Positions 36,858 through 58,510 of a DNA stretch of 64,000 bases are shown one piece after another; position 1 is the stretch's first letter, and each line of letters opens with the position of its first letter. This DNA comes from an uncultured Streptomycetaceae bacterium (GTDB taxonomy: Bacteria > Pseudomonadota > Gammaproteobacteria > Burkholderiales > SG8-41): assembly GCA_964521405.1 (NCBI GenBank), contig CAZFRR010000065.1:357-64356 (forward strand), in the 5' to 3' direction. The notes under the pieces were generated by a model. That model had not been told where the DNA came from. It searched no databases and was given only the letters and a program-made list of their open reading frames with translations. Made by a program: the position numbers and the translations under genes.

Positions 36858-37023
36858 GGTGAAACCACCCCCATCCCAACCTTCCCCCTGAGGGGGAAGG
36901 GGAATTTTTTCTTCCCCCTGAGGGGGAGGAGAACTCTTTTCTGCGCGAGAAAAAACATTCCCTCCCCCTCAGGGGGAGGGCCAGGGTGGGGGTGGTTCGT
37001 TTGCTTCGCGACCACTCATTCTG
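36858..37023. repeat. GC-rich nested-palindrome element, copy 1
   Basis: The outer stem ACCACCCCCATCCC / GGGTGGGGGTGGT encloses three hairpins: CCTTCCCCC-TGA-GGGGGAAGG, CTTCCCCC-TGA-GGGGGAGG and CCCTCCCCC-TCA-GGGGGAGGG. It is the reverse complement of 59782-60022. Confidence 0.85.
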
Positions 37024-53432: not shown

Positions 53433-54059
53433 ATGACGCAATCGCCCCGGATCGTCAAGAAGTACCCGAATCGCCGGCTTTACGACACCGAAACAAGCAG
53501 TTACATCACGCTTGCGGACGTCAAGAAGCTGGTGCTGGAAACGGTTGCCTTCAAGGTGGAGGATGCCAAGACCCACGAGGACCTGACGCGCAGCATCCTG
53601 CTGCAAATCATCCTCGATGAGGAAACCGCGGGGGCGCCGATGTTCTCGAGCGACATGCTGTCGCAGATCATCCGCTTCTACGGCAACGCCATGCAGGGGA
53701 TGATGGGCAGCTATCTCGAGAAGAACATCCACACCTTCATCGAAATGCAGAAGCGCCTGCAGGACCAATCGCGGCAGATCTATGGCGACAACCCCATACT
53801 GGGCGCGGACGCGTGGAGCGAGTTCATCAAGATGCAGGGCCCCGCGATGCAGGGGCTGATGGGGAGCTATCTGGATCAGAGCGCCAACGCCTTCATGGAA
53901 ATGCAGCAGAACCTGCAGCAGCAAACCCGCAATCTCTTCGGCAACTTCCCGTTCCCCACCTTCACGGGCGGCGCACCGCGCCCGACGGGCGACGCCAAAT
54001 CACCGGGGTCGCCGGCGCATGACAGCGGCAAAAAAGAAGGCGGCGAAGGCAAGCCCTGA
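53433..54059 (+). CDS. phaR: Polyhydroxyalkanoate synthesis repressor PhaR
   Basis: 208 aa with N-terminal segment [21 protein letters not shown]. Confidence 0.92.
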
Positions 54060-55422
54060 GCGGGCGGCGCGACCGCGCGCCCCGCACGCAGCACCCCAAC
54101 CCCGGGTCGGGTTTGTTTCCCTCGGTTGCCCCAAGGCGCTGGTGGATTCCGAGCGCATCCTCACCGAGCTGCGCGCCGAAGGCTACCTGATCTCTCCCAC
54201 TTACGAGGGCGCCGACCTCGTCGTGGTCAATACCTGCGGCTTCATCGATTCCGCCGTCGATGAATCGCTCGGCGCGATCGGCGAGGCGCTCTCGGCCAAC
54301 GGCAAGGTGATCGTCACCGGCTGCCTCGGCGCCAAGGGCGACATCGTCAGGAAAACCCACCCGCGAGTGCTCGCGGTGACCGGGCCGCATGCGACCGACG
54401 AAGTGATGCGCGCGGTCCACCGGCATCTGCCGCAACCCCCTTACGATCCGTTTGCGAGCCTGGTGCCGGTCCAGGGCATCAAGCTCACCCCGGCGCATTA
54501 CGCCTATCTCAAGATCGCCGAAGGCTGCAATCACCGCTGCACCTTCTGCATCATCCCCTCGATGCGGGGCGATCTCGTGAGCCGGCCGGTCGGAGAAGTC
54601 CTGCGGGAAGCGGAAAACCTGGTGAAAGCGGGCGTACGAGAGCTGCTCGTCATCTCGCAGGACACCAGCGCCTACGGCGTGGACGTCAAGTACCGCACCG
54701 GCTTCTGGAACGGCCGGCCGGTGAAGACGCGCATGACCGAGCTGGCCCGCGCGCTGGGCGGCCTCGGCGCGTGGGTGCGGCTGCACTACGTCTACCCCTA
54801 CCCGCACGTGGACGAAGTCATCCCGCTGATGGCGGAAGGCAGATTGCTGCCCTACCTGGATGTGCCGTTCCAGCACGCAAGCCGCAGGATATTGAAGCTC
54901 ATGAAGCGGCCGGCCAGCGCCGAGAATAATCTCGAGCGCATCCGCCGCTGGCGGGAGATCTGCCCGGAGATCACGCTGCGCAGCACATTCATCGCCGGCT
55001 TTCCGGGCGAGACGGCGTCCGAGTTCGAGGAATTGCTCGCTTTCCTCGAGCAAGCGCAACTCGACCGCGTCGGTTGCTTCGCCTATTCGGCGGTGGCTGG
55101 CGCCGCGGCCAACGCCCTGCCCGGCCCCGTGCCGGAAGCAGTGAAAGAAGAGCGTCGCGCCCGACTCATGAAGCTCCAGGAAAAAATCAGCGCCGGCCGG
55201 CTCCAGCGCAAAATCGGGAAAACACTGACCGTCCTGGTGGACGAGGTCAGTGCCGGGGGTGCGGTGGCGCGCTCCAGCGCCGATGCGCCCGAAATCGACG
55301 GCGTCGTCCACGTGGCGCCCGCTGCCGGGCTGAAACCCGGCGCCTTCGCCCGGGTCCGCGTGACGCGCGCCGATACCCACGATCTGTGGGCCGAATGGGT
55401 GAGTGATTCAGTGATTCAGTGA
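54019..55422 (+). CDS. rimO: Ribosomal protein S12 methylthiotransferase RimO
   Basis: Radical-SAM segment [11 protein letters not shown], with a UPF0004 N-terminal domain and a TRAM C-terminal domain. It is collinear with recalled E. coli RimO from [10 protein letters not shown] onward. The ATG at 54019 overlaps phaR by 41 nt. Confidence 0.9.
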
Positions 55423-55496
55423 TTGAGTGATTGAGTGCGAGAGGCCGCGCATTCAGCATAAGGCTACTGATCACCTAAACACCCAATCACCTAATT
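55401..55496. repeat. 8-nt-period array hairpin ((G/C)AGTGATT / AATCACCT flavour)
   Basis: The left arm GAGTGATT CAGTGATT CAGTGATT GAGTGATT GAGTGCGA (55401-55440) spans the rimO stop. Right arm: GATCACCT AAACACCC AATCACCT AATT (55469-55496). The array continues after the inserted element as AATTAATT ACCCAATC AC. Confidence 0.8.
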
Positions 55497-55647
55497 GCGC
55501 TGTGTCACAAGATAGATTCCCTCCCCCTCGACGGGGGAGGGTTAGGGTGGGGGTGAACCGCCTCAAGATGCGCAACTTTTTCACCCCCATCCCAGCCTTC
55601 CCCCATCAAGGGGGAAGGAGTTTCTCTGGTGTTTTGTGACACAGTGC
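55497..55647. mobile_element. 151-nt MITE-like element with 14-bp terminal inverted repeats and a candidate 4-bp AATT target duplication
   Basis: TIRs are GCGCTGTGTCACAA and TTGTGACACAGTGC (one G-T mismatch). AATT flanks both sides (55493-55496 and 55648-55651). The interior holds the same GC-rich hairpin modules as 36858-37023 but in permuted order. Confidence 0.6.
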
Positions 55648-55661
55648 AATTAATTACCCAA

Positions 55662-57608
55662 TCACTGGGCGACCCGGTCGCGAACTCGCGTGGTGAAAAA
55701 CGCCGCCGCCTCATTCACGTCGCGAGTGAGCTTCATGGGCGGCAGGCTCGCCAGCACGCGCTTGCCGTAACTGCGGGTGAGGAGCCGCGGATCGCAGATC
55801 ATGAGCACGCCGCGGTCGGTCTCATCCCGGATCAGCCGGCCCGCCCCCTGCTTCAGCATGATGACCGCCTCGGGCAGTTGATACTCGAAGAAGGCGCTGC
55901 GGCCCTCGCGGTTCATCCGGTCGATGCGCGCGGCGAGCACCGGGTCGTCGGGCGATGCAAACGGCAGCTTGTCGATTACGACCAGCGACAGCGCCTCGCC
56001 GCGCACGTCCACCCCTTCCCAGAACGAGTGGCTGCCCACCAGGACCGCGTTGCCGAGATCGCGGAAGCGCACCAGCATCTCCGAGCGCGAGCCCTCGCCC
56101 TGCGTGAGTAGCGGGTAATCGAGCCCGCGGGCCTCGAATGCCTGCCGCAGCAGCTGGTAGCCGTTTCGCATCGCGCGCAGGCTGGTGAAGAGCAGAAACG
56201 CCCCGCCGCCCGCCGCCTCGATGACCGGCAACGCGGCCTCCACCACGGCCTCCGTATGTTCAGTCGTATTGGGGTCGGGCAACCGCTCGGGGATACAAAG
56301 CAGGGCCTGCTCCGTAAAGTCGTAAGGGCTCGCCCAGCTCGCGGTACGCGCTTGCTCCAGCCCCATCTGGCCGCAGTAATGCGCGAAGTCGTTGTTGACC
56401 GACAGCGTCGCGGAAGTAAAGATCCACGCCCGCGCGTCGCCTTCGATCCGGGCTCCGAAGATCTCGGCGATCGACAGCGGGGTCGAGTTGAGATGCAGGG
56501 AATGGCTGAAGAGCTCGGCCCACTTCACGCGCGCCTCGTCCACCCCGCTCCTCCAGCGCTCGAGTCCTTCCGCCAGCGTGAGCGCCCGCTGCCAGCAGCG
56601 CTTGAGGCCTTCGCTGCGCTCGGCCTGGCTTTTCAGCCGGCCGGAAAGCTGGTCCAGCGCGGACAGCACGGCGTTCAACCCGGCCTCGAAATCCTTGTCG
56701 CCCTCGAGCATGCGCGCGGGCAGTCTGCCGCTCGCCTGGCTGAACGCCAGCCGGAGGTCGCGCGCGTATTTATCCAGCGCCTGCGCCGCCTCCGGCAACG
56801 GGGCATAGTCCTTAGCCGAGGCCGCTCCTTCCAGGCGAACGTCGCGAGCGAGCCCGGTCAGCTGGGAGGTTGAGATGCTTTCGCTGAAAAAAAGAGTCGC
56901 GGTCTCGGGCAGCTGGTGCGCTTCGTCGAAAATCACCGTGTTGCTGGCGGGCAGCAGCTCGGCCACGCCTTCGTCGCGCAACGCCAGGTCGGCGAAGAAC
57001 AGGTGATGGTTGACCACCACCACCTCGGCTGCCAGCGCCTTGCGGCGCGCCTCCATGACAAAGCACTTGTCGTAGTGCGGGCACGGCGAGCCGAGGCAGT
57101 TCTCGCGCGTGGAGGTGGCATGAAACCAGGCGCCCGAACTCTCCGGCACGCTGGAGCACTCGGCCTTGTCGCCGGTCAACGTGCTGCGGGCAAAGCGCTC
57201 GATCTCACTGAGATGCCGCACCTCCTCGCGCGTCGGCAGGCGGCCATCGTTCAACGCGCGCTCGAGATGGTAGTGGCAGACGTAGTTGGCACGGCCTTTC
57301 AGCAACGCCACCGTTACCGGCACCTTGAGCGCCTGGCGCACGGTGGGGATGTCGCGGTCGAACAGCTGGTCCTGCAGCGTCTTGGTGCCGGTGGAAATGA
57401 TGACCTTGCCGCCGGACAGCAGCGCCGGCACCAGGTAGGCGACGGTCTTGCCGGTGCCGGTGCCGGCCTCGGCGACCAACTGCCCCTTCCCGGCGATGGT
57501 TTCCGCCACCGCGTGCGCCATCTCGACCTGAAACGGCCGAGCGCGGAAATCCTGCATGACCCGCGCCAGCGGCCCCGCTGCGGAAAACAGGTGGTCGAGA
57601 TCGATCAA
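55662..57608 (-). CDS. DinG/YoaA-family Fe-S ATP-dependent DNA helicase
   Basis: ORF 55662..57734. A TTG start at 57608, 2 nt after the upstream stop, gives an N-terminus collinear with recalled E. coli YoaA. Walker A AGTGTGKT and DEAH (FDEAHQL) are present, with four Cys in CSS...C..SPC....KC. Confidence 0.88.
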   Translation of the reverse strand: MIDLDHLFSAAGPLARVMQDFRARPFQVEMAHAVAETIAGKGQLVAEAGTGTGKTVAYLVPALLSGGKVIISTGTKTLQDQLFDRDIPTVRQALKVPVTVALLKGRANYVCHYHLERALNDGRLPTREEVRHLSEIERFARSTLTGDKAECSSVPESSGAWFHATSTRENCLGSPCPHYDKCFVMEARRKALAAEVVVVNHHLFFADLALRDEGVAELLPASNTVIFDEAHQLPETATLFFSESISTSQLTGLARDVRLEGAASAKDYAPLPEAAQALDKYARDLRLAFSQASGRLPARMLEGDKDFEAGLNAVLSALDQLSGRLKSQAERSEGLKRCWQRALTLAEGLERWRSGVDEARVKWAELFSHSLHLNSTPLSIAEIFGARIEGDARAWIFTSATLSVNNDFAHYCGQMGLEQARTASWASPYDFTEQALLCIPERLPDPNTTEHTEAVVEAALPVIEAAGGGAFLLFTSLRAMRNGYQLLRQAFEARGLDYPLLTQGEGSRSEMLVRFRDLGNAVLVGSHSFWEGVDVRGEALSLVVIDKLPFASPDDPVLAARIDRMNREGRSAFFEYQLPEAVIMLKQGAGRLIRDETDRGVLMICDPRLLTRSYGKRVLASLPPMKLTRDVNEAAAFFTTRVRDRVAQ

Positions 57609-57610
57609 GC

Positions 57611-58510
57611 TCAGCGCACTTCCTCGACTTTGACCAGCACGCGCCGGCTGTCGCGCGTCGTCGTGGTGGTGCGCCCGAATAGGACCGACTGCTGCCCGCT
57701 GGCATCCTGGCCGATGCCGCCAATCTCCATCCATTCACCGAGCCGGCCGGAAACCGTCGTCACCACGCTCTGGACGTTCACGGCGCCCGGAACCTGCCGC
57801 GACAGCGACTCCCGCTGCGGGCTGATATCGAGCGTGACGCGATCGCCCGCGAGCCGGGGCAGCACGTAAAAGCCGGTATTGGCGTCGCGGTACTGGGTGC
57901 CCTCCACGACCTGCTCCACCACCTGCCCGTTGATGACGACGCGGCGCACCTGCCGCTCGCGCACGGGCACCGATTGGCCGACGGACACGAAGGCCTCGCG
58001 CCCCTCCATGACTCGCACCGCCTGCGTGCTGCGGTCGCTTTCCACGCGGCGATTCTCCACGGCCTGCGCACGCACCCGGTCGTCGCCTTCGCCGATGACC
58101 ACGCTGCCGCCTCTCGCATCGCGGCTGCCGGGTGGAATGGTTATCCGGCCCTGCTCGCCGCCCACGCTGCCCGACACTGAGGCGGAACTGCGGCTGCGGT
58201 CGATGTCGGCATCCTGCCGCACCGTGATCAGCAGCTGCCGCGGGGCGGTGTCGATGCTGGCGAGAATGCGCTTGATCTCTTCCAGGTTGGCGGGCGTGGT
58301 GCGAACGATCAACTGGCCCTGCAAGCCGCTCACGCTGCCTTCACGCGAGAGCATCGGCTGGATGATAGGGATCACTTCCGGCGCCGTGCGGTAGCGCAAC
58401 GGGATCACTTCGAGGACGGCGATCTGGGACAGAACCGCGCCAGCTGAGCAAAGCAATGCAACAGCAACGAAAATAGCGGTTGCGCGGATTGCCGAAAAAA
58501 ACAGTTTCAT
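57611..58510 (-). CDS. Short secretin-like periplasmic/outer-membrane protein (secretin N-domain plus truncated secretin-like C-region)
   Basis: ORF 57611..58624. The ATG at 58510 gives the signal peptide MKLFFSAIRATAIFVAVALLCSAGA. It has a Secretin_N-like segment VIPLRYRTAPEVIPIIQPML...LIVRTTPANLEEIKRILASID. It is about 299 aa. Confidence 0.6.
   Translation of the reverse strand: MKLFFSAIRATAIFVAVALLCSAGAVLSQIAVLEVIPLRYRTAPEVIPIIQPMLSREGSVSGLQGQLIVRTTPANLEEIKRILASIDTAPRQLLITVRQDADIDRSRSSASVSGSVGGEQGRITIPPGSRDARGGSVVIGEGDDRVRAQAVENRRVESDRSTQAVRVMEGREAFVSVGQSVPVRERQVRRVVINGQVVEQVVEGTQYRDANTGFYVLPRLAGDRVTLDISPQRESLSRQVPGAVNVQSVVTTVSGRLGEWMEIGGIGQDASGQQSVLFGRTTTTTRDSRRVLVKVEEVR

Follow-up and report, generated by a model that had tools for sequence, protein, structure and literature searches.

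In the window that we analysed, a stretch of 64,000 nucleotides from contig CAZFRR010000065.1 of assembly GCA_964521405.1, two convergent genes meet at a hairpin built of 8-nt repeats, and this hairpin is interrupted by a 155-bp palindromic repeat, a MITE (miniature inverted-repeat transposable element), which is the subject of this report. The source assembly (G000; 4.6 Mb, 324 contigs, 64% GC) belongs to an uncultured soil betaproteobacterium. Window coordinates equal contig coordinates minus 356, and C65 denotes the copy of the MITE that lies in the window. Both genes were called as open reading frames (ORFs): rimO (54019-55422, plus strand) encodes ribosomal protein S12 methylthiotransferase (TIGR01125 RimO, 557 bits), and yoaA (55662-57734, minus strand) encodes a DinG-family DNA repair helicase (NF053712 YoaA, 871 bits).

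A sequence-only reading of this stretch had described an 8-nt array hairpin here, and it is present. The left arm (55402-55437) consists of 4.5 units of AGTGATT(C/G) with a period of 8, found by repeat search and reported as an 8-nt array of 4.5 copies by Tandem Repeats Finder (TRF). The core, or loop region (55438-55469), which was delimited from the sequence and its fold, has a small GC hairpin of its own. The right arm starts at 55470. Inverted repeats define its proximal part (55470-55494), which reads GATCACCT AAACACCC AATCACCT A... and ends in the left target duplication of the MITE. Its distal part (55654-55667; TTACCC AATCACTG) is an inverted repeat 82% complementary to 55417-55438, and TRF reported one continuous array over the junction left by excision of the element.

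The array overlaps the rimO stop codon, as the final codons and the TGA of rimO fall within the first left-arm units, and the yoaA stop (TCA at 55662-55664, TGA on the minus strand) lies inside the distal right arm. Both convergent genes terminate inside the array hairpin, rimO with a TGA in a left-arm GTGATT unit (55417-55422) and yoaA with a TGA in the right arm's final AATCAC unit. Stop codons in both directions are supplied by array units, which lengthen RimO by a few residues relative to congeners. Another array hairpin of G000, outside the window (C7:2540-2750), has about nine AGGTTCA units facing GGAACAC/GGAACTT units. In total, TRF found 3,838 arrays of period 6-10 in this assembly.

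Boundaries and interior of the element

The MITE occupies 55495-55649, is about 98% identical to the family consensus in the copy alignment and folds into a single long hairpin, for which an energy of -102 kcal/mol is listed; the consensus (-108 kcal/mol) also forms one long hairpin. Its left terminal inverted repeat (TTGCGCTGTGTCACAAGA, 55495-55512, plus strand) carries two substitutions relative to the consensus TTGCACTGTGTCACAAAA, and its right one (TTTTGTGACACAGTGCAA, 55632-55649, minus strand) is identical to the consensus. These were the only two matches to the 18-mer family end in the window (two mismatches on the plus strand and none on the minus strand), where 0.01 would be expected by chance. 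Over 26 nt, the family end is TTGCACTGTGTCACAAAATAGATTCC.

Inverted termini had been proposed at this place, and a repeat search recovered them as arms of 19 nt with 95% complementarity (55492-55510 and 55634-55652). The proposed length of 151 nt did not hold. A TT before GCAC and an AA after GTGC are conserved across copies; therefore the true ends are TTGCACTGTGTCACAAAA and TTTTGTGACACAGTGCAA, the element measures 155 bp, and each of the two earlier boundaries was misplaced by 2 nt. The flanking duplication shifts accordingly. The 151-nt core is indeed bordered by AATT at either end, as had been noted, but AATT is made of two duplication bases and two element-end bases, and the duplication itself lies two bases further out: family-wide flank analysis places it at CTAA on the left (55491-55494) and TTAA on the right (55650-55653), with one mismatch between the two. 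AATT was rejected as the duplication because its TT and AA belong to the conserved termini of the element and because restoration of the array phase needs the removal of 159 bp, not 155.

The element has no coding capacity, and the ORFs that overlap it are mechanical frames of 69-75 amino acids only. An Rfam search of the MITE gave nothing above the gathering threshold, and the sub-threshold matches were to generic hairpin (miRNA precursor) models only.

Its interior consists of two GC-rich modules that are recognizable as inverted repeats. Module 1 (55519-55557), the hairpin CCCTCCCCC-TCGAC-GGGGGAGGG with the tail TTAGGGTGGGGGTGAA, is terminator-like on the minus strand. Module 2 (55580-55618), an inverted copy of module 1 with the tail TTCACCCCCATCCCAG and the hairpin CCTTCCCCC-ATCAA-GGGGGAAGG, looks like a terminator on the plus strand. 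With the two modules inverted to each other, the whole element folds into a long hairpin. Both halves contain a 9-bp GC stem and then an outward-reading T-rich stretch, a structure that is predicted to be able to stop transcription from both sides. The suggestion that these modules recur at 36858-37023 in a swapped order was correct: element positions 20-59 match window positions 36957-36994 at 87.5%, and positions 86-122 match 36866-36900 at 86.5%.

Modules of this kind are not confined to the MITE. About 90 hairpin-plus-tail modules occur in G000, 28 of them inside its 13 MITE copies, and the module is present across the genus and in other plasmids, including those of Azospirillum. A two-module palindrome on an Iodobacter fluviatilis plasmid (L199; NZ_CP025783.1, 33507-33608) is 77% identical over 102 nt, has another central spacer and lies about 150 nt from a tnpA gene of the IS200/IS605 family. 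Single modules were seen in Azospirillum, Photobacterium, Sphingobium and Aeromonas plasmids, and the module family extends over several proteobacterial classes.

Copies of the family and their target sites

A BLAST search of the complete assembly with the element as query identified 13 copies with the same ends in G000, on contigs C23, C24, C37, C46, C65, C127, C161, C172, C185, C194 (two copies), C195 and C316. Nine of these are full-length (154-156 bp), with a mean pairwise identity of 93% and a maximum of 98.7%; the remaining four are longer or rearranged, with internal modules duplicated or nested. The congener G015 has about eight copies at 85-91% identity, and in the 31 remaining genomes of the genus only the short internal module is present. 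Exact-match scans for the end sequence found further copies in other betaproteobacterial metagenome-assembled genomes (MAGs) and in soil and groundwater metagenomes. The ends, TTGCACTGTGTCACAAAA, are conserved on both sides of all the G000 copies and of copies in at least five other genomes. A scan of 400 genomes of the order that allowed two mismatches in the end added almost no copies, and the end sequence was not found in the literature searched. End matches in Enterobacter, Leclercia and low-GC contigs lacked a partner end and were dismissed as chance or unrelated.

Variant copies span 76 to 362 bp and comprise single-hairpin minis of 76-78 bp and composites of 195-362 bp. The minis (76-88 bp at loci L118, L157 and L188 and at G035:C57:13203-13290) have a single CCTTCCCCC-GTCAA-GGGGGAAGG hairpin enclosed by the two ends. 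What the 78-bp minis lack relative to the 155-bp form is exactly the segment bounded by the two CC(C/T)TCCCCC repeats, and they could be either deletion derivatives of that form or its ancestor. Nested insertions were also seen. In the C46 copy of G000 (C46:5375-5613), the loop of the first GC-rich hairpin holds an 84-bp insert made up of two additional C-tract/G-tract hairpins, and in the metagenome copies L150 and L182 the second module is interrupted by a different insert, about 150 bp long and bounded by GCGGAGCAGG...CCTGCTCCGC ends.

To define the target site, we compared the flanks of 26 non-redundant copies (52 flanking tetranucleotides) and shuffled the right flanks among copies as a permutation control. 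The sequence-only reading had called for other copies with the same terminus and a 4-bp duplication, and such copies were found: 12 of the 26 had perfect 4-bp direct repeats, ten of them non-palindromic. Shuffled flanks gave a mean of 3.5 perfect pairs, and none of 100,000 shuffles reached 12. Flanks compatible with an extension of the inverted repeat were present in only two of the 26 copies. Among the 20 copies with a TA core on both sides, the first and fourth positions matched directly in 31 of 40 comparisons, as against 16 expected, and CTAA, TTAG, TTAA and CTAG accounted for 35 of the 52 tetranucleotides. Direct repeats in G000, in genome orientation, were TTAG/TTAG (C172), ATAG/ATAG (C185), CTAA/CTAA (C195) and TTAA/TTAA (both C194 copies); copies from other genomes had TTAT/TTAT, ATAG/ATAG, CTAA/CTAA, TTAG/TTAG and CTAC/CTAC. 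The duplication is therefore 4 bp long, as had been claimed, but its sequence is NTAN, mostly YTAR, and not AATT. A duplication of TA only was considered and rejected, as the outer positions of the tetranucleotides co-vary as direct repeats.

All 13 copies in G000 are intergenic, and many lie 1-13 nt from a stop or start codon. There are 7,248 YTAR sites in G000; arrays of period 6-10 make up 2.3% of the genome and contain 6.6% of these sites, and three of 12 insertions are inside arrays. In a genome with 64% GC, YTAR sites are concentrated at stop codons and within the AT-richer arrays, which suffices to explain the copies at gene ends and in arrays. Special targeting of arrays was considered and set aside, since any enrichment is weak at most and is accounted for by the intergenic position. 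At C161:5670-5676, the left duplication CTAA supplies the TAA stop codon of an upstream ORF of 417 amino acids. The G047 ortholog of this ORF ends differently, and the final few codons of the G000 ORF were apparently replaced by the insertion.

Array phase and the locus in relatives

In-silico removal of the element with one copy of the duplication (155 + 4 = 159 bp) leaves GATCACCT-AAACACCC-AATCACCT-AATTACCC-AATCACTG, in which the proximal and distal parts of the right arm are in phase and the arm is in perfect 8-nt register. The sequence-only reading had held that the array is restored by removing 151 nt and one AATT. That excision (155 nt) gives ...AATCACCT-AATTAATT-ACCCAATC... and is 4 nt, or half a period, out of register; only the removal of 159 nt is in register. 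With 159 bp removed, TRF reported a single continuous 8-nt array over the junction at three independent insertions, C65, C194:1961 and C194:4634, and the arms at C65 then comprise 4.5 and 4.6 units. The in-silico empty site of the window copy reads ...CCCAATCAC(C/T)TAATTACCCAATCACTGG..., and an unoccupied site would be expected to contain ...AATCAC(C/T)TAATTACCC.... From the restored phase, which stands in for an empty site, it follows that the arrays were unbroken and in register at the time of insertion.

The spacer between rimO and yoaA lacks the element in 32 of 32 congeners. In four genomes the two genes almost abut, and in three, including the closest relative G047, a small additional gene is present. 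In G048 and G012, array hairpins without interruption follow directly 3' of rimO, with different units and copy numbers. Away from this locus, the array at the G042 ortholog of the C194:1961 site is uninterrupted, the C161 locus is present in G047 without the element, and a search with the joined flanks of 12 insertions against 33 genomes found several orthologous loci that lack it. The empty site that had been sought in relatives was reached only at the level of presence or absence and of array phase, not to the base. A search with the exact RimO protein returned no further record, and hence no same-species contig by that route.

In G015, the contigs that carry rimO and yoaA (C546 start and C210 end; L204 and L205) both break in the spacer exactly on TTAA. 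These breaks may hint at an unassembled repeat or insertion sequence (IS) in the orthologous spacer. At C194:1961-4788 of G000 there are two inverted MITE copies, each in its own 8-nt array hairpin at TTAA. Between them lie some 2.5 kb of genes with conserved synteny in congeners. The pair resembles a composite transposon; it most likely represents two independent insertions.

Transposition, alternatives and known systems

Inverted ends together with a fixed 4-bp duplication point to a DDE cut-and-paste transposase with 4-nt staggered cuts. Judged by the target and the length of the duplication, this transposase would be IS5-superfamily-like, an assignment that we make with moderate confidence and that does not file the element itself under IS5. 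The duplication motif of IS5 is YTAR (PMC10359306).

Transposase genes are present on several short contigs of G000: IS5 (C92), IS1182-like (C213), ISNCY (C245), unclassified (C188), IS701 (C10), IS4 (C247) and IS630 (C146). In the elements on C92, C213, C245 and C188, the inverted ends are immediately flanked by CTAG, a tetranucleotide of the target class used by the MITE. As candidate parents, the IS5, IS1182-like, ISNCY, IS701, IS4 and C188 contigs were rejected since their ends are unrelated to those of the MITE. The IS630 elements (C146 in G000 and C842 in G015) were rejected for unrelated ends and for the wrong length of duplication. Pairs of ends with three mismatches at C310 (1.5 kb apart) and C7 had no transposase between them and were attributed to chance. 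The only long inverted pair of true ends, 2.8 kb on C194, brackets resident genes that are syntenic in congeners, and metagenome contig L163 ends 17 nt past the terminal repeat with a different interior; a follow-up pattern for the latter matched nothing.

We consider it highly probable that the window copy is a MITE-like mobile repeat that was inserted into a pre-existing array hairpin by a DDE transposase acting in trans, with a 4-bp NTAN duplication. In this model, the transposase would bind the inverted ends of roughly 18-20 bp (TTGCACTGTGTCACAAAA) and cut the target with a 4-nt stagger at NTAN, mostly YTAR, and repair of the stagger would generate the direct duplication. The window copy would have landed on (C/T)TAA in the right arm of the existing array hairpin, 8 nt from the yoaA stop codon. 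Membership in a multi-copy family with conserved inverted ends, the supported 4-bp duplication, the intergenic position of the copies, the restoration of array phase on in-silico excision and the finding that none of 32 congeners has the element at this locus bear out the earlier proposal that a mobile repeat entered an array that was already there. The family appears to be active in this lineage, or to have been so formerly.

Several observations weigh against this interpretation. The sequence-only reading had suggested a search for a transposase with matching ends, and neither such a transposase nor an autonomous element was found in G000, in G015 or in 400 genomes of the order; exact-match scans of public genome, metagenome and viral collections likewise returned no partner with matching ends. 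The lack of a partner is weak evidence, as MAG assemblies often lose IS copies. The TTGCAC... ends of the MITE do not resemble the GG... ends known for IS5-group elements. The duplication of the window copy is imperfect (CTAA versus TTAA), and the joined flanks of the 12 insertions yielded no base-precise empty site in the 33 genomes, the congener spacers being too diverged.

One alternative is a MITE of the IS630/Tc1-mariner type, like Correia, RUP and Stowaway, with a duplication of TA only and a length of 157 bp (N-TTGCAC...GTGCAA-N). TA is indeed the invariant core of the flanks, and this explanation also predicts a 159-bp removal at array sites. Moreover, IS630-family transposases occur in G000 and G015, which are rich in the family, and are absent from G047 and G021, and the end of the G000 IS630 element (TA followed by CTCAGCAGTCACGAATATAG) bears a weak likeness to that of the MITE (...GTGTCACAAAATAG). 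However, the bases before and after TA co-vary as direct repeats (15 of 20 and 16 of 20, versus about 8 expected for each) and vary from copy to copy, unlike a fixed element terminus, and the ends on C146 and C842 are unrelated to each other as well as to the MITE. We therefore regard an IS630/Tc1-type origin as very unlikely. It could also be speculated that no transposon insertion took place, the palindrome being local or having spread by recombination or gene conversion in the manner of repetitive extragenic palindromes (REP/REPIN) through a Y1 transposase (REP-associated tyrosine transposase, RAYT), and that the AT-rich flanks are simply array sequence. The interior doublet of inverted hairpin modules has a REPIN-like shape, about 60 further modules lie outside MITE copies, RAYT-like Y1 transposase genes occur in G000 and in 24 of 33 congeners, and the Iodobacter plasmid has the same doublet beside an IS200/IS605 tnpA. 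Even so, we give this explanation hardly any credence. The same ends and 4-bp direct repeats recur in copies outside arrays (C316, C195, C172, C185, C161 and others), whereas REP/RAYT and IS200/IS605 systems are known to move without a target duplication and without a need for terminal inverted repeats. A link between RAYT and the interior modules found no support, as every module is more than 900 bp away from the three RAYT-like genes in G000.

Two further explanations concern what the element carries. It might be a domesticated, portable two-way transcription terminator that is kept at gene ends for its function and is more than a tolerated parasite. The window has two terminator-like stem-loops here, one per strand, facing outward and followed by T-rich sequence, where 0.4 would be expected; the window and C161 copies lie between convergent genes, several copies abut stop codons, and free-standing modules show the canonical hairpin-plus-T-run shape (window 36940-36990). 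On the other hand, at least three copies (C185, C23 and C127) lie between divergent genes according to an ORF heuristic, the T-tracts are broken (AGTTTCTCTGGTGTTTTG), and the gene-end position already follows from the YTAR target, for which TAA and TAG stop codons supply sites. Such domestication is in our judgment improbable. Similarly doubtful is the idea that the MITE is a chimera, in which transposon ends from an undescribed DDE lineage whose target is IS5-like have taken up two copies of a widespread GC-rich, terminator-like hairpin module. If the chimera did exist, then, since YTAR contains TAA and TAG, stop codons and array hairpins would receive a ready two-way terminator, and the element would be a mobile terminator cassette instead of a neutral parasite.

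The insertion by a DDE-type MITE that we favor serves as a clean and datable marker in a genome where array hairpins are numerous and evolve fast, and arrays become ordinary insertion targets because YTAR sites are present in them. Three repeat systems can now be told apart, namely the 8-nt arrays, the GC-rich hairpin modules and the DDE-type MITE that carries two such modules. The family, with its TTGCACTGTGTCACAAAA ends and 4-bp NTAN duplication, can be masked and counted in related MAGs.

Like other prokaryotic MITEs (reviewed in PMC10969869; census in PMC11602168), the element is small, free of ORFs, bounded by inverted ends and a short duplication, present in many intergenic copies and able to form a stable hairpin. 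It differs from them in an end sequence that appears nowhere in the literature searched, in having no known parent IS and in its uncultured soil betaproteobacterial host. It shares with IS5 the 4-bp duplication and the YTAR motif (PMC10359306), although some of its targets are NTAN (ATAG, TTAT and CTAC) and its ends are unrelated to those of the resident IS5, IS1182-like and ISNCY elements. Nesting into other repeats, as in BOX, RUP and SPRITE clusters, also occurs in this MITE. SPRITE is likewise a small repeat with terminator-like hairpins, which in the MITE are predicted, and the two sequences are unrelated. As in REP/REPIN, the interior has two inverted, roughly 40-nt, GC-rich palindromic modules, and the module is abundant on its own; the MITE is set apart from these by its DDE-type features, inverted ends and a duplication, and no association with RAYT was found in G000. 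Correia of Neisseria, RUP of Streptococcus pneumoniae and Stowaway are similar in size (about 100-160 bp), have TA at the core of the target and form hairpins, and effects on neighboring transcription have been proposed for them, as here for the MITE. These IS630/Tc1-mariner derivatives duplicate only TA, whereas the MITE duplicates 4 bp. The element is a real but ordinary bacterial MITE, of a kind that is already known.

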